This document shows, piece by piece, positions 749 to 15,418 of a DNA stretch of 29,556 bases. The stretch spans positions 1 through 29,556 of the forward strand of contig CAZMXZ010000001.1 in the NCBI GenBank assembly GCA_964570405.1, in the 5' to 3' direction. Made by a program: the position numbers and the translations under genes. The notes under the pieces are model-generated. The model did no database searches, had not been told where the DNA came from, and saw only the letters and a program-made list of their open reading frames with translations. The stretch is from an uncultured Candidatus Saccharibacteria bacterium. Its GTDB lineage: Bacteria > Patescibacteriota > Minisyncoccia > Phycocordibacterales > XYD1-FULL-46-19. Every line of letters begins with the position of its first letter. Positions within the stretch are counted from its first letter, which is position 1.

Positions 749-1096
749 ATGGCGAAGGCGATTAATCGTTGGCTAACGGCTTGGCGGAAACCAGAATTTT
801 TTTTACGACTCGGCTTGGGTGCGGTCTACGCCTACTCCAGTTGGCATCTACTCCACGGCCACAAAAGTGATTGGGCAGAGATCCAAGGTTGGATTGAAGC
901 CGTTTTAGCCATCGCTCTTCTCATCCCGTTTTGGCCGCGACGGCTGGTCAAGTGGGGGAGTCTAGTGGCGGCGATTGAACTGGTGATAGTCTTTAAAGTT
1001 GTGGGCATTACGCCCGATTCCTTCCCGCTGGTGGGCGTGATTGCGGCTGCTCTGGCCCTGTTTACCATTTATGAGCGTCATCCTCGCGGCCTATGA
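749..1096 (+). CDS. DoxX-like small multi-pass membrane protein
   Basis: 115 aa with about 4 hydrophobic segments; FLRLGLG and GWIEAVLAIALL resemble DoxX family motifs. TGTTATAAT lies 8 nt upstream. Confidence 0.55.
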   Translation: MAKAINRWLTAWRKPEFFLRLGLGAVYAYSSWHLLHGHKSDWAEIQGWIEAVLAIALLIPFWPRRLVKWGSLVAAIELVIVFKVVGITPDSFPLVGVIAAALALFTIYERHPRGL

Positions 1097-2850
1097 TCGT
1101 TGGTCTTGGTTGGTACATTGTTAGTTTTTTGCTCGGCTTGAGCTCTGGCGTCTGGCCGGACTTGTTGCCGGTGATCTTGATCGTGGTGACCATGGCGCTG
1201 GCATCAGAACGCAAGCGGGCGATGATTTTGACTGTTACTTTTGCACTGACTTTTGTTTTGACGTCAATTTTTTTGGGTCTTATCGTCGGATTAGCGGCGG
1301 CCACGCTAACGGAGTGGGGGATAATGCTTGCCTTGGTTCGCCCACTAATTTATTTAGTTGTCGGCTTGGTAACTTATTGGCTGGCCTTGGGCGAGCTGGG
1401 TCTGCTCCCGCGGCCACTCCCACCACAACTGTTGTCACTGGCCCAATTTAATCGGGCTGCTACTTGGTGGTCAGCCGCCGGTCTTGGCCTAATGCTCGCT
1501 TTGCCGGGCATTATTAGTTTTGAACCAACCTTGCTCTTGCCCCTAACGGCTGCCCTCACGGCTAGTCGGTTGACCTTGGGCGCCTTAACCATGCTATTTT
1601 ACAGTCTGGGTCGCCTCTTGCCGCTCTTTATTTTGGTGGCGGCCGCTTGGTGGGGTAAAAATCTTTTAGCCCAGTTGGCCAACTACCGCGAGCGCTGGCA
1701 AAAGACAGCCGGCTGGTTTTTGGTTTTTTTGTCGGGCTTGATTGTGGTTAGTAGTCTGGTGGCCAGTACTAATTTGTCGTTGCCGGTGGGGGCGATTAGT
1801 CTAATTGCTCTATGGCTCTGGCCGTGGTGGCATAGTGTTTGGCAAAAACGGCAACCAGTGGGGACAGTTTTATTTTGTTCTCTGACATTATTTTTATTTG
1901 CGCTCTATGTTTTACCTCAAGAAACTAATTGGTGGGGCTGGCTTGAGAGTTTTTCGCCGAGCATGACCTACCAGGAGTCAGCGGCTGTTAGGCGAGGATC
2001 GGTTGTCAACTTTAGTTATGCGCCTGATCCAATTTTAGTTGGCATCCCAACAGTTTTAATTTTTTCTCCCGCCGATGGAGCTACCGCTGCCCCCCTACCG
2101 GCCAGTGATCTGGCGGCTGGTCCGAGTGGCCAAATGCAGGCGGTGGCTATCCGTGATGATTTGAGTGAATTTTCCCACTTTGTGCCAACGCCGGATGATC
2201 GGGGATTGTTTACCAGTCAGTTTGTTTTCCCCAGTCCGGGGCGCTACAAAATTTGGTCCGAAATTAAGACTGGTCAGACGAGCAAAATTTTTGGCTTCCA
2301 ACCCGTCGAGGTGATTGGCGGAGGAGTGGTGTCGGAACCAGGTAGTGACGAGGCCGGTCCGCAAACAGTTGGTCCGTGGCAAGTCAACTTGGCCAGTCCA
2401 GCCAAGTTGGTGTCTGGAGCCCCCCTGCCACTAACAATTGACTTAACCTCTGCCTCAGCCCAACCTAATCCCACGATCGATATTTATGTGGTGGCGGCCG
2501 ACTCAGGCTATTTAGCCCACCAAACAATCAATCCGAGTGATGGTCTGGCCTGGTGGCGTGGTTTAACGGCGGCCGCTTTTGACTTACCGCTCCCGGCAGT
2601 GGTCGATCAAACTGGCACGGCCAATAAATTTTTTATTACCCTGCCGCGGCCTGGTGACTACCGAGTCTTTGTTGATTTGCTGACCAGCAGTGGTCAGCCC
2701 AGTAAAAACAAAGCGGCCGCCTTTTGGCTCAAAGTGGAACCACCCGATCCCGTTGGCAGTCTGACGGGGAGTCAAATGATTTTGGCTCTAGTTATTATTT
2801 TAGCCGCCGTTTCTCTCTTTAGTCGGTTGATCCAAATTAATCAGCGATAG
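1093..2850 (+). CDS. CcdA/DsbD-beta-like membrane domain fused to two extracytoplasmic Ig-like (YtkA-like) domains with a C-terminal TM anchor
   Basis: N-terminal ~270 aa are multi-TM with LFYSLGRLLPL, typical of CcdA. Two repeats of the FPSPGRYKIW / LPRPGDYRVF type follow. ATGA overlap with the upstream stop. Confidence 0.55.
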   Translation: MIVGLGWYIVSFLLGLSSGVWPDLLPVILIVVTMALASERKRAMILTVTFALTFVLTSIFLGLIVGLAAATLTEWGIMLALVRPLIYLVVGLVTYWLALGELGLLPRPLPPQLLSLAQFNRAATWWSAAGLGLMLALPGIISFEPTLLLPLTAALTASRLTLGALTMLFYSLGRLLPLFILVAAAWWGKNLLAQLANYRERWQKTAGWFLVFLSGLIVVSSLVASTNLSLPVGAISLIALWLWPWWHSVWQKRQPVGTVLFCSLTLFLFALYVLPQETNWWGWLESFSPSMTYQESAAVRRGSVVNFSYAPDPILVGIPTVLIFSPADGATAAPLPASDLAAGPSGQMQAVAIRDDLSEFSHFVPTPDDRGLFTSQFVFPSPGRYKIWSEIKTGQTSKIFGFQPVEVIGGGVVSEPGSDEAGPQTVGPWQVNLASPAKLVSGAPLPLTIDLTSASAQPNPTIDIYVVAADSGYLAHQTINPSDGLAWWRGLTAAAFDLPLPAVVDQTGTANKFFITLPRPGDYRVFVDLLTSSGQPSKNKAAAFWLKVEPPDPVGSLTGSQMILALVIILAAVSLFSRLIQINQR

Positions 2851-3374
2851 AGTCCAATCAGTTTGGCCACGGTCACAATGCGGCCGGCGGTGGCCGCCAT
2901 CAGGTCATTAACTTTGGTCGTGGCGGGCAAATTGAGTGTAGTATCGAGAGCATAAAGTTTAAACCAGTAATGGTGCGAGCCAGAGGGCGGGCAAGGGCCG
3001 CCATAACCAGACTGGCCAAAACTGGTCTGGCCCGCCACTGCCCCCGTGGGGACAGAGTTGGCAGCAATCTCGGTGGTAGTGGGAGGAATGTTCCAGAGTG
3101 TCCAATGAGTCCAGGTGCCGGCTGGCGCATCGGGGTCATCAACAATTAGAACCAAACTTTTAACGCCACTTGGCACACCAGAGATGGTGAGTGGGGGATT
3201 AATATTTTGGCCGTCACAAGTGTACTCGGCCGGTATTTTTTCGCCATCAGTAAAAGCGGTGCTAGTTATTTTCATATTACTCTTGGAGTTATTGTTAGGG
3301 GGCGATTTTACAAAAAATATCGCACCCAAGATTATAATAATTATTAAGCCAACTAACCAATATAATTTTTTCAT
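2841..3374 (-). CDS. YbhB/YbcL family (PEBP / Raf-kinase-inhibitor-like) protein with N-terminal TM or signal segment
   Basis: Motifs YTCDG, LIVDDPDAP, WTHW, YGGPCPPSGSHHYWFKLYALD. Confidence 0.93.
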   Translation of the reverse strand: MKKLYWLVGLIIIIILGAIFFVKSPPNNNSKSNMKITSTAFTDGEKIPAEYTCDGQNINPPLTISGVPSGVKSLVLIVDDPDAPAGTWTHWTLWNIPPTTTEIAANSVPTGAVAGQTSFGQSGYGGPCPPSGSHHYWFKLYALDTTLNLPATTKVNDLMAATAGRIVTVAKLIGLYR

Positions 3375-3378
3375 ATGA

Positions 3379-3449
3379 TGGACCTAGCGAGAATCGGACT
3401 CGCGCCTCCACAATGCGAATGTGGCGTCGTACCACTAGACTATAGGCCC
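3379..3449 (-). tRNA. tRNA-Ala(CGC), 71 nt, CCA not encoded
   Basis: Acceptor GGGCCTA/TAGGTCC with the G3:U70 Ala determinant and A73; anticodon arm CCACA-TTCGCAT-TGTGG; T arm GCGAG-TCCGATT-CTCGC. Confidence 0.92.
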
Positions 3450-3452
3450 AAT

Positions 3453-3686
3453 TTATTCTTGTTTTGGCTGACGGTTAAAAAATTTAACTAAGTAATTGGT
3501 GCCAATGATCAAAACGATCGTCAAAACGATGGCATAAATAAATTTGGCGATTATTCCGGCCTGATCAGACGGGTAGAGGGAGTCAATCAAGGCCTTGATG
3601 GCGTCATTCCAAGCCAGGCCGACCACCAAACCAAAAGCCGCCGTTAAATAACCGAGTATCTTTTCTTTAACCTCTTGGCCGAGCAT
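3453..3686 (-). CDS. DUF5654-like two-TM small protein
   Basis: AAFGLVVGLAWNDAIK motif and two hydrophobic helices. ATG at 3686 lies 8 nt after TAAAAT. Confidence 0.75.
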   Translation of the reverse strand: MLGQEVKEKILGYLTAAFGLVVGLAWNDAIKALIDSLYPSDQAGIIAKFIYAIVLTIVLIIGTNYLVKFFNRQPKQE

Positions 3687-3724
3687 CAAAAATCATTTTA
3701 CTCATTTTTAGTAACTTGGCAAAT

Positions 3725-3752
3725 AAAAAACCACCCGTTTAGGAACGGGTGG
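3725..3752 (-). terminator. Intrinsic terminator of the 3753-4241 gene
   Basis: CCACCCGTT-4 nt-AACGGGTGG perfect 9-bp stem followed by T6 on the minus strand. Confidence 0.85.
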
Positions 3753-4241
3753 TCAACCGCGCTTCTTCAAAATTTCATAAAAGTATTTGTGCCAATTCGC
3801 CGTTTGGCCGTAGAACTCGGCTTCGCCGGCGACCAGGCAAAGGTCGGCTTCAACAGTTCGACCAATTTTCCGTTCCAGGACGACTCGCGTTTTTGCCGGA
3901 TAACGCTTGATCGTGGCGCAAACAGCATCTAAGTGCTCATAACGGGAGCCTAATCTAAGCGCCACCGTTGGCACGTCGTCTTCCAGCGAGATCGGCGATT
4001 CAATGATCGCCTCGCCGATTAACTCGTAATTGGTCAAGCCATACTGCCAAAGATCAATAATGGCCAGACGGAGTTTATTTTCAGTCAGTGGCTCCGGTAG
4101 CCAATCAGCGATCCGTCGGGCAACAGCCGAATGGATCCAGACCCAGACATCATCCAGATCAGTTGGCTCTCCTTGGCGTGGCAAGTAGGGACGGTTGATT
4201 GGCCGAGACCGGCGGTTTTTCCGTCTCCGATGGCGACCCAT
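3753..4241 (-). CDS. Hypothetical protein (162 aa, Arg-rich N-terminus)
   Basis: AAGGAG SD 5 nt before ATG, own extended -10 (TGGTAACTT), terminator directly after the stop. Confidence 0.75.
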   Translation of the reverse strand: MGRHRRRKNRRSRPINRPYLPRQGEPTDLDDVWVWIHSAVARRIADWLPEPLTENKLRLAIIDLWQYGLTNYELIGEAIIESPISLEDDVPTVALRLGSRYEHLDAVCATIKRYPAKTRVVLERKIGRTVEADLCLVAGEAEFYGQTANWHKYFYEILKKRG

Positions 4242-4301
4242 GGGTTCTCCTTTCAGACCAATTTCTAACTCTAAGTTACCACCTTTTGATTTTTTGGCAA
4301 T

Positions 4302-4471
4302 TTAAATACCCCACTTGTTGCCAAAAGAGATTTTAAGGTTTAAAAATACGATCAGTATAATTATGAAGAGCGGGGTCTTGGCATAACTATACCACCAAGG
4401 GAAAATGCGGATATAAGCCGTACTTTGTGAAAAAAAGTATGTAGATGGAGTGGAACACTCAGAGTAAAAAG
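4302..4471 (-). pseudogene. 5'-truncated, frameshifted fragment homologous to the 3' third of the membrane protein at 7937-8359
   Basis: Reads LFTLSVPLHLHTFF/SQSTAYIRIFPWWYSYAKTPLFIIILIVFLNLKIS versus LFTLSVPIHAYTFFSRSTEYVRFFPLWYSYAEAPVFIIILIVFLNIKIS. One base is missing in the A7 run at 4430-4436. Confidence 0.88.
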
Positions 4472-4498
4472 AAAAAGGCCGACCCCGAAGGATAGGCC
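4466..4498 (-). terminator. Intrinsic terminator of the 4529-5146 gene
   Basis: GGCC-TATCC-TTCG-GGGTC-GGCC hairpin followed by TTTTTCTTTTT. Confidence 0.7.
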
Positions 4499-4528
4499 CG
4501 TATTGTAAAGAAGCCAAGTCACGCTGGA

Positions 4529-5146
4529 CTATCCGTAGAAGGGGCATTCCGAGAGGCTTAGCCACTCATCGTACCCACTCAATAAAACCTGGCCAATCTT
4601 ATTGAGTTCCAACTCTGGATCTTCAAGACAGGCGACCTTGACGTATTGGAGGGCTTCGCCAGAACCACCAGCCTTAGCCCAGATCCCATCATATTCCCAC
4701 AAGGGACGAACAAATGATTCGATCAACACGTCAGAGTATTTGCCCTTAATCTTGCCTCCGACTTTGTAGCCCATCATCTCTGTCGCTTCGAGTATCTCAA
4801 CTGCACCAGTCTGATGGGCTTGAAGTACAGGCTGGAAGTCCTTGAGCAATTGAAGGCAGTACTCGTCGCTACTGGCAGCGCATTTTTGCAACAGTCCAAA
4901 GTGTTGCTCCCAGTCGAGCTGGTGCTTGGCAGGATCTTTAATGGGGCAGAACTCCTCGATATAATACCCCAGCACCCTGGGATCATTTTGCCCGGGCCAG
5001 ATAAGGCGTCGGTCCTGGCAACAATGATGGTTGGTGCTAGTAAAACTGGTTAGAAATACCGCCACTCCCATTGGGAATTGGCCGGGTGCGATTTTCTTGA
5101 GGATTGTCTCGACCATTTGTTGTCTCGACTCCCACTCGGTAGCCAT
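4529..5146 (-). CDS. Hypothetical protein (205 aa, HHCC motif, 7 Cys)
   Basis: Long ORF with AAGGAG SD, upstream TTTACA-17-TATAAA promoter and downstream terminator. Confidence 0.8.
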   Translation of the reverse strand: MATEWESRQQMVETILKKIAPGQFPMGVAVFLTSFTSTNHHCCQDRRLIWPGQNDPRVLGYYIEEFCPIKDPAKHQLDWEQHFGLLQKCAASSDEYCLQLLKDFQPVLQAHQTGAVEILEATEMMGYKVGGKIKGKYSDVLIESFVRPLWEYDGIWAKAGGSGEALQYVKVACLEDPELELNKIGQVLLSGYDEWLSLSECPFYG

Positions 5147-5188
5147 GATGCTTAATCTCCTTCTTTATGATCAAATTTTCAAACCTAG

Positions 5189-5227
5189 TTCTGGTTAATT
5201 TATAGCATTTCGGATTTCTTATGTAAA
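5189..5227 (-). promoter_or_regulatory. Sigma-70 promoter of the 4529-5146 gene
   Basis: TTTACA (5227-5222), 17 bp, TG-C-TATAAA (5204-5199), then AGAA at 5192-5189. Confidence 0.7.
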
Positions 5228-5242
5228 TAGTTTGACATATCG

Positions 5243-5274
5243 AAAAGAAAAGACTCCGGAGCAAATCCAGAGCC
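5243..5274 (-). terminator. Intrinsic terminator of the 5298-5882 gene
   Basis: GGCTCTGGA-TTTGC-TCCGGAGTC (9 bp with G:U pairs) followed by TTTTCTTTT. Confidence 0.8.
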
Positions 5275-5297
5275 AAAAAGGTTTTGACCGAAGAGTT

Positions 5298-5882
5298 TTA
5301 TGTCTCGTGGGTGCCAGCAAAATGCCAGTAACCGCACCACATACAGTCAATGGGCCGGAGATCAAATACTCGATCAACGGCATCGCCGTAGAGGCAGGGC
5401 ACCCGTTCGATACCTTTGGGGTCAAGCCAGATTGTACCAAAGCCAGCAATGGGATACTTCCTTTGGATGCCCGGATGGGCCAGAGCAAAACTCGATAGCT
5501 CGTGGTTAGTGCTGGGCCGCAGATGCTTCCGCTTAAACCTAGCGTAAACCTCTGCTGGTTCAACAAACTGACCAAAGTTGATGAGTTCAATTTTGCCTCC
5601 CGGTCGCTTGATCAATTCGCACTCTCGTGAACAAGTGGAAAGGTCAAGATATTTGTTGATTTTGGTAAAGTTTCCAGCCTCGATCAGATATTCGAGCGGA
5701 AGATGGTAGAGAAAATCAACCGAAAAAATGTTGTCTTTGGGCAGATCATAATTAACGACCTGCCTAGCAAACTTTTCAACCAATGGCAGGTCAGCGGTGG
5801 TGAAAGGACGGCAAAGGTCATTGGTATGACCACCCCACCGCCTCACTTCCGCCTCTAACCTAGTTAAGAGACTAGTACCCAT
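5298..5882 (-). CDS. Hypothetical protein with a possible C-type-lectin-fold C-terminus
   Basis: 194 aa; RPST-x2-EL-x2-FA-x2-HP-x2-QRKYPI and RVPCL...W...F pattern; AAGGAGG SD; own terminator. The fold call is recognition only. Confidence 0.75.
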   Translation of the reverse strand: MGTSLLTRLEAEVRRWGGHTNDLCRPFTTADLPLVEKFARQVVNYDLPKDNIFSVDFLYHLPLEYLIEAGNFTKINKYLDLSTCSRECELIKRPGGKIELINFGQFVEPAEVYARFKRKHLRPSTNHELSSFALAHPGIQRKYPIAGFGTIWLDPKGIERVPCLYGDAVDRVFDLRPIDCMWCGYWHFAGTHET

Positions 5883-5941
5883 GACTAAACTACCCTCCTT
5901 TAAAGATCTTGTGCTGGCTCAAGCTCTAGCACACTATGTCC

Positions 5942-5988
5942 AAAAAGAAAAGGCCTTACGGTATGAGTAGTGTACTCTTCCATGAGGC
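5942..5988 (-). terminator. Long interrupted hairpin terminator of the 5989-6264 gene
   Basis: GCCTCATGG..GAGTA-CAC-TACTC..CCGTAAGGC immediately after the TAA, followed by CTTTTCTTTTT. Confidence 0.65.
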
Positions 5989-6264
5989 TTAATAAATAAT
6001 TGCGGGGATCAAAACTTTCCAGACTGTAATGCTTGCCATTATGGCCGGCACCACCACTCCGAAAAATGCTATAAACTTTTTAAGTCCATGACTCTGTGAG
6101 AAAGCTTTAGTCCAAACCACAAAGACAAAGATATTGACACAAAGTTGTAGGCATCCTGCCAGTACGCTAGATCCCGAAAAAAAATTTGTGAAATTCGCAA
6201 TCAAGAAAAAGGACGGACCAATCAATCCTGAGATAGTCATCCATTTTGAGTTTTTATCTATCAA
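5989..6264 (-). CDS. Small three-TM hypothetical membrane protein
   Basis: 91 aa, mostly hydrophobic; promoter TTGACT-17-TATTCT at 6345-6317. The start codon (TTG 6264 or a downstream ATG) is uncertain. Confidence 0.7.
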   Translation of the reverse strand: MIDKNSKWMTISGLIGPSFFLIANFTNFFSGSSVLAGCLQLCVNIFVFVVWTKAFSQSHGLKKFIAFFGVVVPAIMASITVWKVLIPAIIY

Positions 6265-6388
6265 CCTGGCCTCTCTTTCAAGAAAATTAGAGTGGGCGAC
6301 AGAGTTTCTACTTTAGAGAATAACACCGTAGTTATAAAAAGTCAACCCTGGCTCCTTTTGGTACGGGATGTCGGAGCTTTTTGTAGGT

Positions 6389-6423
6389 AAAAAGAAAAAC
6401 CGCTCGTCAAGAACAACAAGCGG
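6389..6423 (-). terminator. Intrinsic terminator of the LysE gene
   Basis: CCGCTTGT...ACGAGCGG stem followed by TTTTTCTTTTT. Confidence 0.75.
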
Positions 6424-6459
6424 ACTCACCAGTCAAGAAGATTCCTGGTTCACCTGAAA

Positions 6460-7095
6460 TCACTTTCTGTAAAGAGCGAGCCTGATGCCAAGAGCGATGA
6501 GTATGGCGCCGGTCACTCGCTCAAACCAGACCGAGACTTGCTCAAAGATCCTCTTCACTCTCTCGACAGACAGAACAGTGGCCAGGAGTGAAAACCAAGC
6601 AACAGCGATGAGCATGATTTCCAAGCCATAGGCACAGCGCAAGACTAGAGAGCTATTAGGAGCAACCACTACACTGAACAGACTGACAAAGAACAGCGCG
6701 CACTTTGGGTTGAGCAGGTTAGTAAGAAGACCTGTTCGAAAAGCCCTAGCCGGAGTCATAGTTACAACACTCCTGCCTACTAATCCAACAGTTTTTGTTT
6801 CAGAAGTAGATCCTCTCTTCGAATGAAATGATCGTATACCAAGATAGACTAGATATAGCGCCCCAAGCCACTTGATAACATTGAAGAGAGCTATGGTCTT
6901 CGAGATGATATACGAAATGCCGAGAACTGAAGCTGCGACCCACCAGATAATCCCAACGGCAATACCAAGGGCTGTTGCGAGCCCAACTCGTTTTGAGTAG
7001 AGCAAGCTGTTACGAGTAACAATGAGAAAATCTGGTCCGGGACTTACAACAGCGAGAGTACCAACAACCGTCACAGCGAGAAAGGTGGTATTCAT
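6460..7095 (-). CDS. LysE/RhtB family amino-acid exporter
   Basis: VSPGPDFLIV, GLATALGI, GALYLVYLG, FRTGLLTNLLNPK, ERVTGAILIALGIRL. Confidence 0.95.
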   Translation of the reverse strand: MNTTFLAVTVVGTLAVVSPGPDFLIVTRNSLLYSKRVGLATALGIAVGIIWWVAASVLGISYIISKTIALFNVIKWLGALYLVYLGIRSFHSKRGSTSETKTVGLVGRSVVTMTPARAFRTGLLTNLLNPKCALFFVSLFSVVVAPNSSLVLRCAYGLEIMLIAVAWFSLLATVLSVERVKRIFEQVSVWFERVTGAILIALGIRLALYRK

Positions 7096-7149
7096 GCAAA
7101 ATCTCCTTGTAAAAATACTGAGTTCTAGTCAATTTATAGCACGTTTTAT

Positions 7150-7182
7150 AAAAAAGAAAAAGGGCGTCCCACTTAGGTACGC
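7150..7182 (-). terminator. Intrinsic terminator of the 7203-7418 gene
   Basis: GGCGTACC-TAAGT-GGGACGCC stem followed by CTTTTCTTTTTT. Confidence 0.75.
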
Positions 7183-7202
7183 CTATAAAACTTAGTCTGA
7201 AG

Positions 7203-7418
7203 TCAATATTCTTCTTCCTCGCTGAACCGGTCCTGACCGTGATCCCAAGTACCAAGGTCCATTCCTGAGGGTTCCTCTCCACGATCATCGGCCTGGCAGT
7301 AATTGCATGTTGCTAACCTGGCTTGATCAGGCGGTACTAGAGCCATCCCAAAAAAGTTATGACCACAGCCTCCACAGTATGGATGGATCCAGTCAGGAGG
7401 TGGTGCAGTTTCTGGCAT
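7203..7418 (-). CDS. Small acidic zinc-ribbon-like protein (2 x CxxC)
   Basis: 71 aa with CGGC and CNYC; GGAGG SD 9 nt upstream; terminator downstream. Confidence 0.65.
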   Translation of the reverse strand: MPETAPPPDWIHPYCGGCGHNFFGMALVPPDQARLATCNYCQADDRGEEPSGMDLGTWDHGQDRFSEEEEY

Positions 7419-7494
7419 TTTCTTTATCCTCCACTAATTGTTGATGAATCTGCCTTATTCCTAACACAGATAAGAAACATTGGTCAATACTCGA

Positions 7495-7531
7495 CTCCGC
7501 GGGCAGCCTGCCTGCCGATAGGCAGGGATTC
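7495..7531 (-). pseudogene. 3' half of an outer tRNA-Asn, interrupted by a 20-bp palindrome
   Basis: Minus strand reads GAATC-[20 nt]-CTGCCCGCGGAG. Removing the 20-mer gives GAAT CCTGC CCGCGGA G, which pairs with the 5' half at 7776-7829. Confidence 0.85.
7507..7526. repeat. 20-bp palindromic miniature repeat CCTGCCTGCCGATAGGCAGG
   Basis: 7-bp perfect arms CCTGCCT/AGGCAGG around 6 nt. It resembles, from memory, a short palindrome family common in CPR genomes. Confidence 0.75.
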
Positions 7532-7562
7532 TTCCCCTACGGGGGCAGGTATGTCCTCTGAG

Positions 7563-7634
7563 CTCCGGCGGCAGGATTCGAACCTGCGACCAATCGCTTA
7601 ACAGGCGACTGCGCTACCACTGCGCCACGCCGGA
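7563..7634 (-). tRNA. tRNA-Asn(GTT), intact inner copy, 72 nt, CCA not encoded
   Basis: TCCGGCG/CGCCGGA acceptor with G73; D stem GCGC; anticodon loop CTGTTAA; T arm GCAGG-TTCGAAT-CCTGC. Confidence 0.96.
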
Positions 7635-7775
7635 GCTCAAGTGACATACAAGGTTATTTAGTTTTCAACGCGGGATTCGATCCTTACAGGATCAGTATAC
7701 CTTTTGGATATTTTACTCGCTTCAACTCAAAAATATCTCAAGAAGGTTTTTCGGCACTCTAGGTATTCGCGCCTC

Positions 7776-7829
7776 AACCTGCGACCAATCGCTTAACAGG
7801 CGACTGCGCTACCACTGCGCCACCGCGGA
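7776..7829 (-). pseudogene. 5' 54 nt of an outer tRNA-Asn(GTT), ending in the T-loop
   Basis: 7776-7823 is identical to 7581-7628 (48 bp). Its acceptor 5' strand is TCCGCGG rather than TCCGGCG. Confidence 0.9.
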
Positions 7830-7853
7830 GCCGGGGCATCTAAAACAACCCAC

Positions 7854-7882
7854 ATCCTAACGCCAATTTTCCCAAAAAGCAA
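7854..7882 (-). promoter_or_regulatory. Probable promoter for the tRNA-Asn locus
   Basis: TTGCTT-17 bp-TAGGAT upstream of the outer tRNA 5' half. Confidence 0.5.
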
Positions 7883-7936
7883 AGCGACAGACATAGTCTG
7901 TTCGTCACAAGCGGCGTTTGAGATATAATATTAGTC

Positions 7937-8359
7937 ATGAAGATATACGACAATTTAAAAAAGCATCAGTTTTATTTCATCTACGCTGTCATAGCAGCCA
8001 TGACATTCGGCATATATCTACATGTTTCGGCGATCGTTTTTGGAAAAGATTTGTTATTACAGCGTTTTTTTACTCCGACTGCCGACATGTTTCTTGCCGT
8101 TCTCATTGCGTGGGGCAGTATTGGTCTTATTGCATATCGAAAGACCGTACATTTGCCTAACATCTTCATAAAAATTGTTTATTATTTTACCACAGTACTT
8201 TTTACCCTGAGCGTGCCTATACACGCATATACTTTTTTCTCGCGAAGCACCGAGTATGTCCGCTTTTTTCCTTTGTGGTATAGCTATGCAGAAGCCCCGG
8301 TCTTCATAATCATACTAATTGTATTTTTGAATATTAAGATATCTTCTCGCAGTGAGTAG
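7937..8359 (+). CDS. Four-TM hypothetical membrane protein
   Basis: 140 aa hydrophobic ORF. A conserved homologous fragment at 4302-4471 supports coding. TATAAT lies 7 nt upstream. Confidence 0.85.
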   Translation: MKIYDNLKKHQFYFIYAVIAAMTFGIYLHVSAIVFGKDLLLQRFFTPTADMFLAVLIAWGSIGLIAYRKTVHLPNIFIKIVYYFTTVLFTLSVPIHAYTFFSRSTEYVRFFPLWYSYAEAPVFIIILIVFLNIKISSRSE

Positions 8360-8389
8360 AGAGTCTGGTTATTTGTCGAGCCAGATTTT

Positions 8390-10975
8390 CTATAACCCCA
8401 CAAGCTGCTGCATTTTGTGGCGGGTCTTGTAGCCGACGTATCCCGATACCGGAGCAATATTGTATTTTGTTTGGAATGTTTTGACGGCTCCTTCGGTGAG
8501 ATTGCCGAAATAGCCGGAGATGATCGCTTCTTGGTAACTGCCTTCGTAGATAAGATACTGCTGCAAGTCTTCCACATCTTCTCCCTGATCACCCTTCTTG
8601 AGGTCGGTATCAAAGACAATCACATCGGCTGGAATATCAAGTTTGGTTTCAGAAAGCGATATGGTGTTTAGCTCCTTCTGCGTTGCGGCATCGACAATTC
8701 CGGTTTGTGGAAGCCGGTGCTTAGTTTGGAAACGCTTGAGTGCTGCCTCAGTGAGCGATCCGAAGTAGCCAGTTATGTATTTTTCAGGATATGAATCTTT
8801 GTCTGCTGCCAGGAGCTCTTGCAAATGTTCGATCTCGATATCCTTGTTGCCTTTTTGCCACGTTTCCACGAAATGAAGGACTGGGGTCGAAGAGGCTAGC
8901 GTGCCACTTTCGTTGAACTTCACTTGTCTTACTCCGGCAACTGGGGCAATTGTAATGTTCACAGCTCTCGACGAACCTCCGCCGGAGCTGCGGGCAAAGA
9001 CTGTGTAGTTGTGAGAAACTCCATTAATTACATTGGTATCAGTAAACGTCTCGCTGTTGCCTTCGTAAATAACCTGACTGTCTCGTTCGACGACCACGTC
9101 TTCGTTCACACCCGGATTTCCGTCATTGATCTCAAAAACTACTTCGTGGTCTGCTCCCGTTACGTCAACAATCGGAGTTTCTGATTCGTCCGTAACTACA
9201 GGTGCAGGGGGTGTTGTGGAAATATTGGAAGAACTGCCGGTGGTAGTAAATGTGTAGTCCTCAGAAAAAGTAACATTTCCGACTTCGTCTGTAGATTTTA
9301 CTCGATAATGATAGGTAGTTCCTGAATTGAGATTGTTCAAAGAAATCGAATGAGAAGTAACGAGTGTTTCAGTATTCGCACTGGAAGATCCATATACGGT
9401 AAGAGGGCCATACTCAACTTGCGACGTTGCTCCTTTATCTGTTGTCCAAGAAATGGCTACCCCCGTGTTTGTCACTGATCCAGAAGAGACAGATGTAATA
9501 TTTGCCGGCGGGACTATGGGGATCGAGTAAGTGAGCGTCGCGAATTCATCATTTGGAGAAACAGTCGCAACTGATGCACCAAGCGGTTTTGATTTCACCC
9601 GGAAGATATAACCGGTATTTGGTGTAAGTCCGGTAATGGTGACTGAGTGAGATGTCGTTAGTGTTGAATCAAGCGGCGTCAGTGATCCAAAGTTTTCACT
9701 GTTGCCATATTCCACTTCTGAATCCGATGGCAAATCGGTATTCCAAGCTATTGTGACTGTCGAAGTCGAAACTGATGCCGCTTCAATTCCAGAGATGAGA
9801 ACTGGGGGAGCTTGCGGAATTGTTTGAGGAGCCTGGGAGGTAATTATCTCGCCAACCGTACCAACGGTTTCCGTCGTAAAAGAGTGCGGGCATGATGTGG
9901 CGGAATTTCCGGCAATGTCGGTAGCGTGGATACAATAGTAATAGGTGGTTCCGGCAGTGAGGCCTGTAAGAATGGCACTATGCGCAAGAAGTGCACTGAG
10001 CGACAGTGTCGCATGAGAGCCATAACTTTGGGTCGTGCCATATTCAAGGGTTGAGACAGCAAGCTCATTGGTGTCCCAGGCAAGCGTAACGTCTGTGATG
10101 CCAAGCGATGCGGTGCCGATTCCAGAGATGATAGGCGGTATAGTATCGGCAGGAGTTTGGACTTGGGCTTGAACGTTAATCGGCGCAGGAGATGAGATCG
10201 ACTCAGTCATAAGTGTCTCATCCGAAGTGATCGTCTCGTTGCCGAGCTCATCGCTCGTGATAATTCGGTAATGATAGAGAGTATTTGGAGTGAGGCCACT
10301 CAGTGCAACAGCGTGAGTTAACGCAAGAGTGGTATTAAGATTTGTCGATTCTCCATAGCCGGCAGTTGTTCCATACTCGATGCGGGCGTTACCGACCTCG
10401 CTTGTGGTGAAATTGATCGTGGCACCCGTCGTTGTGATCGAAGCAACAGTAATAAGGCTTACATCAGGCGGTGTTGTATCAACGATCACTGTTTGCGAAG
10501 CCGTGGTGAATGTATGGTCACATGAATTTGTCACGTTATTGGCAAGATCATGGGTGTGGATGCAGTAATAATATGTTGTACCGGGAATAAGACCGGTCAA
10601 AATTGCTGTGTGAGCTAGGAGTGCTGTCGCGGCGATGGTCGGGTTTGATCCATAGCTCTGTGTGGTTCCATATTCAAAGGTTGAGATGGCCAGTTCGTCT
10701 GTCGTCCAAACTAGTGTCGCATCATGTGTGGCAAGCGAAAGACTTGCCACACCAGAAATCACCGGACCAGTTGTGTCAGCGGGAGAGGTAACTATTTGCA
10801 CCACCGGCTCGGTTACGGCAGGAGGAGCAGGTTCAACATGAGGAGCGGGCGGGGCTGGCGGGGCTGGAGGTGTTTCAACTGGTGGCGGAGTGACTCCACC
10901 AAGCTGGGCGAAGACCGGAAGAGTGTTAAGCAGAAGCAATCCGATAATCACCAGAGAGGAAAAGAACTTTTTCAT
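8390..10975 (-). CDS. Secreted protein with 5 FN3-like repeats, an Ig-like domain and 2 C-terminal peptidoglycan-binding domains
   Basis: Signal peptide ending VFA; Pro-rich linker; five repeats W/F-x-T...EYG...H...L-x2-L-x-(P/A/S)-x-T-x-Y; two C-terminal LQ..L...GYFG-x-LT-x2-A-x3-FQ units. Confidence 0.9.
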   Translation of the reverse strand: MKKFFSSLVIIGLLLLNTLPVFAQLGGVTPPPVETPPAPPAPPAPHVEPAPPAVTEPVVQIVTSPADTTGPVISGVASLSLATHDATLVWTTDELAISTFEYGTTQSYGSNPTIAATALLAHTAILTGLIPGTTYYYCIHTHDLANNVTNSCDHTFTTASQTVIVDTTPPDVSLITVASITTTGATINFTTSEVGNARIEYGTTAGYGESTNLNTTLALTHAVALSGLTPNTLYHYRIITSDELGNETITSDETLMTESISSPAPINVQAQVQTPADTIPPIISGIGTASLGITDVTLAWDTNELAVSTLEYGTTQSYGSHATLSLSALLAHSAILTGLTAGTTYYYCIHATDIAGNSATSCPHSFTTETVGTVGEIITSQAPQTIPQAPPVLISGIEAASVSTSTVTIAWNTDLPSDSEVEYGNSENFGSLTPLDSTLTTSHSVTITGLTPNTGYIFRVKSKPLGASVATVSPNDEFATLTYSIPIVPPANITSVSSGSVTNTGVAISWTTDKGATSQVEYGPLTVYGSSSANTETLVTSHSISLNNLNSGTTYHYRVKSTDEVGNVTFSEDYTFTTTGSSSNISTTPPAPVVTDESETPIVDVTGADHEVVFEINDGNPGVNEDVVVERDSQVIYEGNSETFTDTNVINGVSHNYTVFARSSGGGSSRAVNITIAPVAGVRQVKFNESGTLASSTPVLHFVETWQKGNKDIEIEHLQELLAADKDSYPEKYITGYFGSLTEAALKRFQTKHRLPQTGIVDAATQKELNTISLSETKLDIPADVIVFDTDLKKGDQGEDVEDLQQYLIYEGSYQEAIISGYFGNLTEGAVKTFQTKYNIAPVSGYVGYKTRHKMQQLVGL

Positions 10976-11054
10976 ATGACCTAAGTATACTAGACGATAA
11001 CTTTAATAGATAGCAAGCATGAGCAAGATATCTTTTTTGTTATATAATTGAGGT

Positions 11055-11381
11055 ATGAACATTTCAAGAACAAAATTCGTTGTTCTCTTCCTCATTTCGA
11101 CCTTCACCTTTATGTTTATTTCGAACGCTCTTTTTGGCACAGAGGCCCGAGTTTTTCCCTGGCACGAAAAGTCTTTTTTAGGTACGGATTCACCCATAGC
11201 CTGGAAGAGTGCTGGGTATAAAATTTCATATCCTGTTAAAGTTGTTTTGATCGGACCATTTGACAATTTATTTCACGAAGATCCGCCACCCCCACTTGTT
11301 GCCGCCGTATTTGCTGCCTATTGGTCAGTCCTGGCCCTAGTTATTTATTACCTGCTTAGAAAATTAAGATCGTCTGTTTAA
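11055..11381 (+). CDS. Two-TM hypothetical membrane protein
   Basis: 108 aa with hydrophobic N- and C-terminal helices; TATAAT 6 nt upstream. Confidence 0.7.
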   Translation: MNISRTKFVVLFLISTFTFMFISNALFGTEARVFPWHEKSFLGTDSPIAWKSAGYKISYPVKVVLIGPFDNLFHEDPPPPLVAAVFAAYWSVLALVIYYLLRKLRSSV

Positions 11382-11636
11382 TACAAACTTTTGCGATGGG
11401 CTTAAAGGCTTGTTTGGCCTGTGCCCACATCCAGCCCAACAGCAGGGGCGACGTTTGCCTTGTTTAAGTTCCGAACAAACTCGTTTGATGTGATCTTTTC
11501 TTGTCTCCGGCTTTTTAACCGAGATGATCCAACAGATCCATTCATTACGGGCGAGCGGCGTAATATCTTTCCAGACAGCTAAGGCCGCCTTATCGGCCAT
11601 TAAAGCCTTTCGCAAATCAATCGGCACTTTATGCAT
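11364..11636 (-). CDS. YdeI/OmpD-associated (OmdA) family protein
   Basis: VP-x-DLRKAL, W-x2-ITPLARNEWICWI, KKPETR, GKRRPCCW-x-GC. Confidence 0.88.
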   Translation of the reverse strand: MHKVPIDLRKALMADKAALAVWKDITPLARNEWICWIISVKKPETRKDHIKRVCSELKQGKRRPCCWAGCGHRPNKPLSPSQKFVLNRRS

Positions 11637-11681
11637 CTCAATTATTTTAGCAAATTTCCGGGTTGACTTTAAGCTTTATAA

Positions 11682-11721
11682 TTGACAGTAACTTTTTATG
11701 GTGATAGTAATTTGGCTAGAG
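11682..11721 (+). promoter_or_regulatory. Promoter of the 11744-12183 two-gene unit
   Basis: TTGACA-17 bp-TAGTAA with upstream TG; AAGGAG SD follows. Confidence 0.55.
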
Positions 11722-11743
11722 ATAGAGAAAAGGAGAGAAGTTT

Positions 11744-11965
11744 ATGTGGCGTTTGCGTTACACTCAGCAGGCCTACAAAGGAGCAGTGGCCTTTGCCTGC
11801 CATATTGATTTGCCGCAAGAGATTAAGTTTGAAGAGCGGGAATTGGCGCGGGCCAAGGCCGAGGAACAGCTGACCAAAAAAATTGAGACCAGCCGCTATC
11901 CCGCTGGTTTTAATGACTTGCGACTCTGCTGGGAAGAATCTTTAAGAAAGAAGACGGAGGAATAA
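11744..11965 (+). CDS. Hypothetical protein (73 aa)
   Basis: AAGGAG SD; translationally adjacent to the next ORF. Confidence 0.7.
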   Translation: MWRLRYTQQAYKGAVAFACHIDLPQEIKFEERELARAKAEEQLTKKIETSRYPAGFNDLRLCWEESLRKKTEE

Positions 11966-11967
11966 TC

Positions 11968-12183
11968 ATGGATATTCCAAAGGATAAAAACTATCCGCTG
12001 GATAGCGTCCAGTGTGATCACTGTGGCGGGCATGGTTGCCAAAACTGCAGCAGTCGGGGATGGCTAACACCCCGCGATCATCCACTAGGCCGGAAGTGTA
12101 AGTACGCCAAGTGCGATAAGCCTCTCTCACCCAACCACCTGGCCATCTATTGCTCCAACCAGTGTGCTTACAATGATGCTTGA
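11968..12183 (+). CDS. Small Cys-rich zinc-finger protein (8 Cys)
   Basis: CDHCGGHGCQNCSSRGW (DnaJ-type CxxCxGxG) plus C-x4-C and YCSNQC; GGAGG SD; terminator follows. Confidence 0.8.
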   Translation: MDIPKDKNYPLDSVQCDHCGGHGCQNCSSRGWLTPRDHPLGRKCKYAKCDKPLSPNHLAIYCSNQCAYNDA

Positions 12184-12193
12184 GGCGACGATT

Positions 12194-12224
12194 GAGCTAG
12201 CACCCGTTTTGCTAGCTCTTTTTT
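12194..12224 (+). terminator. Intrinsic terminator
   Basis: GAGCTAGCA-7 nt-TGCTAGCTC perfect stem plus T6. Confidence 0.88.
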
Positions 12225-12239
12225 GTAATAATTAATCTA
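12221..12239 (+). repeat. 19-bp direct repeat, copy 1 (TTTTGTAATAATTAATCTA)
   Basis: Identical to 12924-12942. Confidence 0.92.
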
Positions 12240-12253
12240 ATTGGGCGCCTCTA

Positions 12254-12293
12254 TTGACTTTATGTGGCTGATATGCTATATTTGTAGGCAGAA
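12254..12293 (+). promoter_or_regulatory. Sigma-70 promoter of the 12333 gene
   Basis: TTGACT-17 bp-TATATT with extended TG, then AGGCAGAA. Confidence 0.75.
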
Positions 12294-12332
12294 GTATGGA
12301 GTCAAAATTTTAGGTGGAAGGACTTTAAGACA

Positions 12333-12878
12333 ATGGTCAATTCAACGGTCGAATCAGTCGACCACAAGTATGGTTTTACTCTACTCCTTCAGCATGGCAA
12401 AGGAATGGCGTCGAAGCATCTGGACCACTACACCAAGTATTGCCAGGAACTTCGGGACCACCCATTCGGCCTTGACCTCCCAGTCCCGAATCCTATTTTT
12501 GGTCGGGAGATCCGCTACGTTGGGGCAGGGGCGACCGACATCTCGGTCGACGTTTTCCTGGCCAACATCCGGTTTTGGACCAATTGCCATGAGAACGCTC
12601 TGGTTGAGAAACTGCGGGTGATCAATAGCCCTGATCCACGCCACACGAAGAAGGAGAACCAGCGGGTTTCCTTTGAGGTTTGGATCGGTACGCTCGTGAT
12701 CATCTCGGGCGAGACCAACAACTTCAGCGGCGCCGGCAATGCCGCCAGAAGGCAACTCGAAAACGTTTTTGCGACGCTTTCGATGATCTACGCTGTGCCG
12801 ATCGAGCGTGTCAGTCTTAAGCAGGCAGTTTCGCTTGACCAGCTCCACGGCTGGCCGGCCGTCGGCAGTCGAGTTTAA
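12333..12878 (+). CDS. Hypothetical protein (181 aa)
   Basis: Long ORF with its own promoter, a weak SD-like GGAAGGA and a terminator. Confidence 0.8.
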   Translation: MVNSTVESVDHKYGFTLLLQHGKGMASKHLDHYTKYCQELRDHPFGLDLPVPNPIFGREIRYVGAGATDISVDVFLANIRFWTNCHENALVEKLRVINSPDPRHTKKENQRVSFEVWIGTLVIISGETNNFSGAGNAARRQLENVFATLSMIYAVPIERVSLKQAVSLDQLHGWPAVGSRV

Positions 12879-12883
12879 AGTCG

Positions 12884-12927
12884 AGGGTCAGACAGATCAC
12901 CAGATTCTGTTTGGCCTTTTTTCTTTT
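12884..12927 (+). terminator. Intrinsic terminator of the 12333 gene
   Basis: GTCAGACAGA/TCTGTTTGGC 10-bp stem (with G:U pairs) followed by TTTTTTCTTTT. Confidence 0.8.
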
Positions 12928-12942
12928 GTAATAATTAATCTA
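12924..12942 (+). repeat. 19-bp direct repeat, copy 2
   Basis: Identical to 12221-12239. Confidence 0.92.
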
Positions 12943-13011
12943 GTTAATCGTCTGCTCACTTGGAAAAGATGGTCGGCATTTATAAGATAATTTAAAATTT
13001 ATGGCCTACGT

Positions 13012-13653
13012 ATGCCGCTTAAGGTCACTATTATCTTGGGCACACTCAAGCGCAAGTCCCGACGTCAATTTTCCCACACGGAGATCCTAAGCCAGATCTT
13101 AGCCGACGAGCTAGCTAAACATAATGCCAAGACGGAGATTATTCCACTAGTCGAGTACTCGATCCCACCGGGGACTAAGAGTCATATGGGCCGGGGCGAC
13201 GACTGGCCACGGATTCTCTCTAAGTTGATGGTTAGCGATATCATTATTTTAGCGACTCCAATCTGGTGGGGTGGCCATTCATCCTTGATCCAACGCGCGA
13301 TCGAGCGTCTCGATGAGCTAAATGATAAGATTGTGGAGACTGGTCAGTCAGAATTCTTAAACAAAGTTGGCGGCATCGTTATTACTGGAGCCGAAGATGG
13401 GGCCGAACACATCATTGGTAATCTGGCCAACTTCATGATTTGGAATGGCTTGACCCTGCCACCAGCCTGCTCCCTATCCTACCTGGGAAGTTACAAGGCT
13501 AAAACGGCGGCCGGCTTGAAGCGGGAGTTACTAAAGCACTCATATACTCTCGGGATGGCCCGGACGATGGCGCATAACTTAACCACTATGGCCAGAATAC
13601 TCAAGATCAATCCATTGCCAGCTCAAGAGAAGAATAGCCAGCGTCTAAATTGA
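13012..13653 (+). CDS. Flavodoxin-like NAD(P)H-dependent FMN reductase family protein
   Basis: IILGTLK, SHTEIL, DDWP, SDIIILATPIWWG, KVGGIVITG-x-EDG. Confidence 0.88.
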   Translation: MPLKVTIILGTLKRKSRRQFSHTEILSQILADELAKHNAKTEIIPLVEYSIPPGTKSHMGRGDDWPRILSKLMVSDIIILATPIWWGGHSSLIQRAIERLDELNDKIVETGQSEFLNKVGGIVITGAEDGAEHIIGNLANFMIWNGLTLPPACSLSYLGSYKAKTAAGLKRELLKHSYTLGMARTMAHNLTTMARILKINPLPAQEKNSQRLN

Positions 13654-13692
13654 TTATTAACCTGTTTTTATTAATTATTAATAAGAAAAATT

Positions 13693-14124
13693 ATGAAAAA
13701 AATGGATCCTGTCGTTCACTTCGAGATGGGTTATCAAGATAAGCAGCGGATGATTGATTTTTATACTAAAACATTTGGCTGGAAGGCCCAAATGCTTGGT
13801 CCCGAGATGGGCAATTATGTGGTAGTTCAGACAACCGAGACGGATGATAAAGGAATGGTCCAAAAACCGGGAGCGATTAATGGCGGTCTGTATAAAAAAA
13901 CTGATAGCCCGCTCTCCCATGCCCCTTCCGTCGTCATTGCCGTTGACGATATCCATGAGTCAATGAGGATGGTGGAAGCTGGCGGGGGCAAGATCTTGGG
14001 CTCGATGGATAAGGACGGGAAGCATACCAATGAGCCCCAGATGATACCGGGCGTGGGTCTGTGGATCTCGATTATGGATACGGAGGGCAACCGTGTCTCG
14101 ATGCTCCAACCTAAAGGAATGTAA
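13693..14124 (+). CDS. VOC (glyoxalase/bleomycin resistance) family protein
   Basis: VVHFE, FYTKTFGW, GAINGG, AVDDI, GGKI, IPGVG...DTEGNRVS. Confidence 0.92.
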   Translation: MKKMDPVVHFEMGYQDKQRMIDFYTKTFGWKAQMLGPEMGNYVVVQTTETDDKGMVQKPGAINGGLYKKTDSPLSHAPSVVIAVDDIHESMRMVEAGGGKILGSMDKDGKHTNEPQMIPGVGLWISIMDTEGNRVSMLQPKGM

Positions 14125-14147
14125 TTATTAATTAATTTTATAAATTT

Positions 14148-14447
14148 ATGTATATCGTTAGAGAAATTTTTACGGCCAAACCTGGTCAAGCCGGGAAGTT
14201 GGCTAAATTATTTAAAAAGGGCTGGGCCAATATGCCCAGCGCCCGCGTCCTAACCGACTTGATCGGACCTTACAACACGGTGGTGATGGAGATGGAGATC
14301 AACAGCCTGGCTGACTGGGAAAAAATGATGGCCGACTACAAAGCCGGCAAAATGGGAAAGATGGATCCGGAAGTTGGCAAAGAATTAGCTCACTACCACG
14401 AGATGTATGAGAGTGGTCGGCGCGAGGTCTATCAGATTGTTGACTGA
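14148..14447 (+). CDS. NIPSNAP-like / dimeric alpha-beta barrel hypothetical protein
   Basis: REIFTAKPGQA...RVLTDLIG-x-YNTVV-x-E-x-E...SGRREVY pattern. Confidence 0.6.
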   Translation: MYIVREIFTAKPGQAGKLAKLFKKGWANMPSARVLTDLIGPYNTVVMEMEINSLADWEKMMADYKAGKMGKMDPEVGKELAHYHEMYESGRREVYQIVD

Positions 14448-15418
14448 TTTATTTTTTGGTAGACGAGTTGGGAGAGATCACTGATAACCTTTTCCAACTG
14501 GTCAAAATTTTGACCCTGGGTCATCACGCACAAAAAGTAGGGATGGGCGGGGTAATAAATAATACCGCAATCATGGAGCTGATGTGAGATGACTTGGCCC
14601 TGCCCATCAATGCTGGTATGCTCGCCAAACTTGTGGGCCACGATCGTGCCTTTAGGCAAACTGGCCACCAAACCCTTGGTAAAGGTAGTGTAGGTCAGGA
14701 GTTGGAGAGCCTGCTCCGAGACGTTACGCGGCAGATAGGTTGAACTGTAGAGAATGCGAAAAATCGAGGAGTAGGTCCGGGGCGACATAAAGTCGGTGGT
14801 GGTAATGGTTGGCGGTGGTGCCAGTTCTAAGTCCTTAAAAACATTTACGAAACCTTGATGATTGTGATTGTAGAGGGTAGAGAGAGCGGCATTATCTGAC
14901 TCAATGATCATAGTCAAAATAAGATCATGGACCGAGTATGAGCCACTGGCCAGCGGATGCTCGGGCGGATAGTGCTGGCCCGGATCAAGCACGCGCTGGT
15001 AGGACAGGTGCTCACTTAAAATATTGGGATTAACCTCGGCCTCTTTGAGGTAGCCGATCATCATGGCCACCTTCATCATACTTGAGGGATCATAAAGCGC
15101 ATTCTCATTGACGCCGGTCCACTTGGCAGTATTAACATCACGAAAGTAAGCCGAAATGTCGCTGGCCTGATTTTTGCTAATGGCCTGATCAATGTAAGTG
15201 GCGATGGAATTTTTTAGTTGATCATACTCTGGCGCTTGGCGGGGTGAATCAACTAAGAGCAGGGGATTGATATAGTGGTAGTTTTCATCATTCTCTCTAA
15301 TCTCGATTAGGCGACCTGGTTGCCGGGCAGCGTAACTGATCCGAATAAACCAGCCAAGGGTGGCGCCTAGAAGGAGGGCAAGGCCAAGAGACCAATAAAA
15401 ACGACGGGGACTAATCAC
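14432..15418 (-). CDS. Serine hydrolase, class A beta-lactamase / PBP-like, membrane anchored
   Basis: SxxK (SMMK), SDN, K-x-G (HKFG), HDCGIIY-x-P-x2-PY-x-LCVMT; N-terminal TM. Confidence 0.88.
   Translation of the reverse strand: MISPRRFYWSLGLALLLGATLGWFIRISYAARQPGRLIEIRENDENYHYINPLLLVDSPRQAPEYDQLKNSIATYIDQAISKNQASDISAYFRDVNTAKWTGVNENALYDPSSMMKVAMMIGYLKEAEVNPNILSEHLSYQRVLDPGQHYPPEHPLASGSYSVHDLILTMIIESDNAALSTLYNHNHQGFVNVFKDLELAPPPTITTTDFMSPRTYSSIFRILYSSTYLPRNVSEQALQLLTYTTFTKGLVASLPKGTIVAHKFGEHTSIDGQGQVISHQLHDCGIIYYPAHPYFLCVMTQGQNFDQLEKVISDLSQLVYQKINQSTI

Follow-up and report, generated by a model that had tools for sequence, protein, structure and literature searches.

Does the tRNA-Asn locus at positions 7495-7829 represent a tRNA gene that was split in its T-loop by a 244-bp insert carrying a complete replacement tRNA-Asn, as a sequence-only reading had proposed, or an arrangement of another kind? 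The window, i.e., the whole stretch of 29,556 nucleotides analyzed here, bears all features of this locus on its minus strand, and the pieces on which the proposal was built were recovered above chance by ARAGORN, Rfam, and 13-mer statistics. The first of them (7829-7776, 54 nt) is a partial tRNA-Asn copy that covers canonical positions 1-55 with the acceptor strand TCCGCGG; it gives a partial tRNA match of 26.8 bits in Rfam and differs from the intact tRNA-Asn at positions 5 and 6 only. The intact tRNA-Asn(GTT) (7634-7563, acceptor TCCGGCG/CGCCGGA) was detected by both ARAGORN and Rfam (72.8 bits). No other tRNA-Asn was found among the 30 tRNAs of the assembly (517 kb, 91% complete), and this intact tRNA-Asn beside the junction is the working gene. 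The third piece (7532-7495), previously taken for the outer 3' half, copies the TCCGCGG allele over tRNA positions ~56-73, with a 20-nt palindrome (7526-7507) separating GAATC from CTGCCCGCGGAG within 7531-7495. Its end (7507-7495) matches the TCCGCGG-type 3'-end 13-mer with at most one mismatch, where ~0.04 such matches are expected per whole window, and a search of the whole window revealed no further tRNA 3'-end copies. When 7775-7532 and the palindrome are removed, the remaining sequence is accepted by ARAGORN as tRNA-Asn. The tRNA-Asn pieces of the window are real and non-random, and foreign sequence is indeed joined to the tRNA-Asn copy exactly in the T-loop, after T55. In addition, a sigma-70-like promoter match (7953-7925; a match to consensus only, at 9 of 12 positions) lies ~95 nt upstream of the outer 5' copy and is the sole one before the intact tRNA on the same strand.

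The 244-bp segment itself proved to be composite rather than one insert with a replacement tRNA, consisting of a structured element, a tRNA remnant, a spacer, the intact tRNA, and the probable tail of a second element copy; the element repeat in its first ~96 nt, the remnant (7680-7669), and the hairpin of the tail (7548-7533) had been absent from the earlier reading. The stretch 7780-7671 is a repeat: of 61 related genomes searched, 51 contain matches to it, with as many as 12 in one genome (71-97% identity). Extraction of 28 element copies yielded an RNAalifold consensus of 21 pairs, 17 of which show compensatory changes. A covariance model of the element core was then built (named R1), and scanning with it detected a single copy in the genome of the window (7752-7680; 73.3 bits, E = 2.6e-19) and 1-13 copies in 16 of the 43 genomes of its family. 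Among 94 copies, pairing holds in 91.6% of cells, compared with 66% for shuffles and at most 63% for slid partners, and changes on both sides were observed at all 21 pairs. On the tRNA-sense strand, GU/UG pairs exceed AC/CA mismatches (67 versus 26), which indicates that this is the strand that folds. The covarying core is composed of P1, P2 with a tandem GA motif, GUACUG, and a P3 hairpin with a UGUAA loop; at 7752-7680 it is matched over its full length, with a neighboring tRNA on the same strand and copies of that tRNA framing it. Comparison with other element copies also identified hairpin A (7775-7753, loop GAATAC..), the mark of a form that we call type A, so that hairpin A and the core make up the upstream copy, i.e., the first 96 nt of the 244-bp insert (7775-7680).

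At the gathering threshold and at E values up to 10, Rfam returned only tRNA matches in the window, with no known ribozyme or intron class, and an Rfam scan of a single-copy type A locus gave only noise. The literature searched for CPR T-loop introns or tRNA-linked elements contained nothing relevant save one paper on tRNA-linked repeats of Escherichia coli. The family comprises gene-less structured elements that occur in the tRNA and rRNA operons of CPR bacteria of the Paceibacterota type, and it is apparently undescribed in Rfam and in the searched literature.

Further examination of the window revealed additional pieces around the intact gene. Directly after P3, a decayed tRNA 3' remnant (7680-7669; TCGAAT, a 4-nt gap, and CCCGCG) fits the TCCGCGG allele and represents 12 of the 19 nt expected in the alignment for its 3' part; RNAfold places it in an acceptor-like pairing with 7827-7823 of the outer acceptor strand. 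The remnant is followed by a 34-nt spacer (7668-7635), and the intact tRNA-Asn begins 46 nt downstream of the upstream element core. Beyond this gene, positions 7548-7533 probably represent the tail (CUG and the P3 hairpin) of a second, 5'-truncated element copy: they align locally to the last 16 positions of R1 (58-73), a match that is weak alone (E 0.28), and the hairpin is directly followed by AGAATCC, as at the junctions between P3 and the 3' copy in the family (compare L070). The palindrome within the adjoining 3' copy consists of the sense T-stem strand, its reverse complement, and the sense strand again (CCTGCC..GGCAGG..CTGCC), and it may have arisen by template switching or be what is left of yet another element frame.

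In relatives, the element occurs in two layouts. Type B was surveyed in the near-complete genomes G009 and G010, where all but one of the 20 copies follow a same-strand tRNA gene; these 19 are distributed over 11 isotypes, with tRNA-to-copy gaps of 45-137 nt and one tandem second copy at 252 nt. The tRNA is followed by a terminator hairpin, the reverse complement of the acceptor 3' strand, a small hairpin, the T-stem 3' strand and T-loop in exact reverse complement (for Val, ACTTGAA from TTCAAGT), and the core. P3 of the core is immediately followed by a direct, often decayed copy of the tRNA that starts in the T-loop and runs to the 3' end. When folded, this strand would form an acceptor-like stem and a T-stem, and the core would occupy the position of the T-loop. 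At the tRNA-Gln locus of G009 (L066:1029-1423), an intact tRNA is followed by a partial copy of its 3' two-thirds and then by two element copies in tandem, the second of which has no acceptor antisense arm.

Type A has the extra hairpin (loop GAATAC..) before the core and follows a sense copy of the 5' part of a tRNA, an intact tRNA of the same kind being nearby (tRNA-Asn in G041 and G045, tRNA-Glu in G039). In both G041 and G045, the type A copy is located upstream of tRNA-Asn behind a 5' fragment that stops in the D-arm, and a type B copy is located downstream of the same tRNA-Asn. The tRNA-Glu 5' fragment of G039 stops in the anticodon loop, and a tRNA-Lys fragment in G049 stops at T55, as in the window; P3 of that element is followed by a decayed 3' copy. 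Type A copies were found in 38 of the 401 genomes of the order, mostly 1-2 per genome, and some of them have no tRNA nearby. Two are located in rRNA operon spacers, one between 23S and 5S (L099:1490-1600) and the other just after 5S (L082:1490-1600); thus, the family is tied to stable-RNA operons generally and not to tRNA genes only. The AGGTT that precedes hairpin A is common to the tRNA T-arm and to element copies lacking an upstream tRNA, and many type A copies begin with it in the absence of any such tRNA. Therefore, the window junction GCAGGTT-GAGG is also a 5-nt overlap between T-arm and element. Genomes and metagenomes were also scanned for the exact tRNA/element junction: the stricter pattern gave 0 matches, and the looser one found type A copies, none of them closely related to the window locus.

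Our preferred reading, to which we assign a probability of roughly 0.55, is that the locus consists of one working tRNA-Asn flanked by a whole and a truncated element copy, both framed by tRNA copies; the feature is most likely real, but not a split tRNA hosting another tRNA. The upstream copy (7775-7680) would reside between T55 and C56, in the T-loop of a tRNA-Asn duplicate, and this duplicate would have kept its 5' part (7829-7776) as the 5' frame of the element, with its 3' part reduced to the 12-nt remnant. Since the 3' copy directly follows P3 in the family, this remnant can be regarded as the 3' frame that belongs to the outer 5' piece. On the downstream side of the working gene, the second copy would retain only its last hairpin (7548-7533) and then its tRNA 3'-part copy (7532-7495). 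Thus, the two pieces that mimic the halves of one split gene, the upstream 5' one and the distal 3' one, would be frames of two different element copies, and the resemblance would stem from the older allele that the fragments share. The window layout appears to have the same three parts as the loci of G041 and G045, namely a 5' copy with an element, tRNA-Asn, and an element with a 3' copy.

The acceptor alleles are informative in this respect. All three tRNA fragments of the window carry the TCCGCGG/CCGCGGA allele, and only the intact tRNA-Asn has the swapped TCCGGCG. Among the tRNA-Asn genes of ~25 relatives, TCCGCGG/CCGCGGA is the commonest acceptor (~10 genomes, mostly of the same family) and TCCGGCG was found in G008 and G045. 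The compensatory swaps that had been read as evidence for two separately evolved folded tRNAs are present, but they are equally explained by fragments copied from an older majority allele, and the fragments were presumably copied while the gene still had it. The D-stem GCGC/GCGC was observed in the outer and inner copies of the window only, all of the ~25 relatives having GCTC/GAGC, which argues that the inner tRNA-Asn is not foreign. Outside the acceptor, the outer 5' fragment shows 0 differences from the intact gene over 47 positions; for a presumed non-functional fragment this counts against our preferred reading unless gene conversion or selection is invoked. Gene conversion could keep positions 8-55 identical while positions 5 and 6, which lie just 4 nt from the homology edge, escape, and selection on a functional outer RNA would yield the same pattern of identity.

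We also considered a single composite insertion, in which an element-bounded unit with a whole tRNA-Asn entered the T-loop of a resident TCCGCGG gene, destroying and replacing it. The outer pieces do belong to one allele and meet at 55 and 56/57, and their reconstruction is accepted by ARAGORN, as a single insertion would predict; these points weigh against our preferred reading, as does the weak score of the second-copy tail. Moreover, element sequence is present at both ends of the insert, and the uninterrupted resident-type allele that the sequence-only reading had asked to be sought among relatives was found in the ~10 genomes mentioned above. However, such an insertion leaves unexplained an extra 3' remnant of the same allele inside the insert, directly after the first core, and the D-arm unique to this genome in both the inner and outer copies is at odds with a foreign inner tRNA. 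Nor can the tripartite loci of G041 and G045, whose 5' fragments end in the D-arm, stem from one insertion, and no such composite unit was detected elsewhere, either in the rest of the assembly or in the genome and metagenome scans. We consider a single insertion unlikely. A search for a filled/empty pair among close relatives found none, which also weighs against our preferred reading; no flanking gene is common within 1.5 kb of their tRNA-Asn, and the window genome (G000) is alone in its genus. Downstream of tRNA-Asn, the region 3725-7466 on the minus strand contains small hypothetical ORFs and a LysE exporter with no counterpart beside the tRNA-Asn of relatives. The locus appears to border a variable region.

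Integration into tRNA genes offers another explanation. The T-loop is a known crossover sublocation for tyrosine-integrase islands and prophages in tRNA genes, as Williams reportedly set out in 2002. The locus resembles att-site duplications in its T-loop crossover, in a direct repeat of the tRNA 3' part bounding the insert, and in the retention of an intact tRNA; accordingly, the fragments might be att duplications at the T-loop of tRNA-Asn and the core a leftover arm. Inserted DNA is indeed bounded here by direct repeats of tRNA portions beginning in the T-loop, and the DNA downstream of tRNA-Asn is cassette-like and lacks synteny. However, no integrase was found in the 10 ORFs examined with Pfam across 1093-15418, including those flanking the locus, and the only PF00589 match in the assembly, a lone tyrosine recombinase, is on another contig (C63). 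The repeats of the window bound 100-250 nt without ORFs, and an integrase-borne island was rejected on these grounds, there being neither an adjacent integrase nor gene cargo between the repeats. Furthermore, the elements of the family are gene-less, only 100-190 nt long, and found at 11 tRNA isotypes, they include 5'-part duplications as well, and each copy carries the letters of its own tRNA, antisense ones included, which a fixed attP cannot supply. Remnants of integrase-mediated integration are thus an improbable source of the locus.

Enzymes of other mobile elements were also searched for. IS110 bridge RNAs and TnpB/IscB omega RNAs are guide-bearing RNAs of mobile elements, and the element is similar to them in having a structured non-coding scaffold beside a stretch matching, or complementary to, the insertion target; unlike them, it is not accompanied by IS110 or TnpB genes in copy-rich genomes. 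TnpB was detected in none of the 43 family genomes and IS110 in none of the five copy-richest genomes, two of which have a reverse transcriptase (RT). Y1_Tnp is present in 31 of the 43 family genomes, but G010, G003, and G022 lack it despite their 4-10 element copies. Y1_Tnp-like C-terminal matches are found in ORFs of 220-260 aa, up to seven per genome, and their presence does not track the element. A non-autonomous element of the IS200/IS605, TnpB, or IS110 kind was rejected, the cognate enzymes being absent or not associated.

It had also been suggested that the 244 nt are a T-loop tRNA intron hosting another tRNA, whose removal would give a second, spliced tRNA-Asn. Non-canonical introns in the T-loop are known in Archaea (PMC3241643, PMC4090602), and the reconstruction accepted by ARAGORN after removal of 7775-7532 and the palindrome is compatible with this suggestion. 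The window resembles archaeal non-canonical introns and split tRNAs in the interruption of the T-loop region and in halves that could pair (PMC4090602, PMC3241643); it differs from them in belonging to a bacterium in which neither the endonuclease nor the ligase was found, and in the decay of the 3' partner beside the element. Neither EndA (PF01974) nor RtcB (PF01139) matched in the 91%-complete assembly, although control genomes were matched, and a protein-spliced tRNA intron was rejected for this reason. The Rfam model Intron_gpI gave no match in 7450-7900 even at E values up to 10, although the same model detects the intron in L082; lacking a catalytic-core match, a group I intron was likewise rejected. 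Moreover, splicing would require two separate removals and a 6-nt T-loop, which speaks against clean exons, and the 5' fragments of related loci, such as those of G041 and G045 that end in the D-arm, cannot be spliced into a tRNA. We regard an intron as extremely improbable.

Read support, for which the earlier reading had called, was obtained from low-depth (4-5x) Logan contigs of two groundwater runs, and it covers only part of the locus. One contig spans 7204-7612 without any difference, linking the inner 3' end (CGCCGGAG) to the distal CCGCGGAG piece, and others tie the upstream flank to the outer 5' copy. No Logan contig of these two low-depth runs covers 7623-7775, so that the junction 7776/7775 is without independent support, and no run was listed for junction-spanning words. 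These gaps would be consistent with an assembly artefact in which a 47-nt identical stretch chained the tRNA-Asn alleles of two strains, as would one contig that continues from 7776 into an ordinary T-loop for 14 nt, which is probably a graph branch from another organism. However, gaps are expected at a depth of merely 4-5x, the contig that links the inner 3' end to the distal piece shows no difference, and junctions of the same kind were found in G049 and in metagenome contigs. A false join would need k-mers running from the tRNA into the AGGTT-GAGG of the element, and because only 5 nt are common to tRNA and element, it is unlikely at this junction. Overall, an artefact of this kind seems very improbable.

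Among known systems, the closest in layout that we compared are the tRNA-linked repeats (TLRs) of E. coli, which Egan and Landy reportedly described in 1978. Like the elements analyzed here, TLRs are gene-less, occur in tRNA/rRNA operons, and lie directly behind a stable-RNA gene. They end in a copy of the last 17-19 nt of that gene, as do the type B copies in relatives; in the window, only the truncated copy ends in this manner, and with the other acceptor allele, so that it is the layout and not homology that is compared. The CPR elements differ from TLRs in their conserved covarying core (R1), in an added antisense tRNA copy by which an acceptor-like stem can form, and in having an upstream form, type A, whose frame is a tRNA 5' copy, as seen in the window. 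The E. coli repeats RrA/B/F are transcribed by read-through and processed, and the TLR repeat, i.e., the duplicated 3' end of the upstream gene, has been proposed as a processing signal for the read-through RNA (Stenum et al. 2021, PMC8144298).

As proposed for the E. coli repeats, the element may use the copied tRNA ends as processing signals. The framed element and the tRNA would be co-transcribed from the promoter-like site upstream, probably as one transcript, and the acceptor-like stem of the frame may allow RNase P and 3' trimming to release the element RNA. New copies could arise by duplicative recombination with tRNA gene segments through host functions. We tentatively raise the possibility, itself doubtful, that the elements of this family form a new class, either of passenger RNAs or of mobile RNA/DNA, in stable-RNA operons, taking an acceptor-like frame from copies of the neighbor tRNA and being released by RNase P and 3' processing; the window would then capture an early stage, in which the T-loop of an entire duplicated tRNA-Asn body still contains the element. 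If so, frames originate by tRNA duplication and T-loop insertion and then decay. As for its role, the element may act as a regulator, persist as a selfish repeat, or be a passenger RNA that depends on processing.

If our preferred reading holds, the nested tRNA is one instance of what a widespread, structured, and apparently undescribed element regularly does, and the window offers the clearest case here of a copy lodged in the T-loop of a tRNA whose 5' body is otherwise complete. The element frames would also preserve an older acceptor allele than the working gene does, i.e., a fossil record of compensatory tRNA evolution. Caution is needed in annotation, as such loci mimic split or intron-bearing tRNAs.

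The copies within individual genomes provide further detail on the family. Three type A loci of G049 (L006, L035, and L036) have identical P1-P2 cores in different frames, and the P1-P2 core of a type B locus in the same genome (L042) differs from them at few positions; the P3 stems of the four loci differ in a compensated manner. Such near-identical cores at four loci suggest recent intragenomic copying or conversion without a recognizable enzyme. A second conserved module (..GCGRGAAATTTTCAGCAGAAAATTATCYGTGAC..) was observed just after or before the type A cores of L008, L017, L081, L082, L086, L098, and L119. In some type A copies, GCGRGAAATTTTCAGCAGAAAATTATCYGTGAC takes the place of P1-P2 after GCAAGACC. 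L082, which carries one of the two rRNA operon copies, also has a group I intron (376-665; Rfam 56 bits) within the 23S rRNA gene of genome G308.
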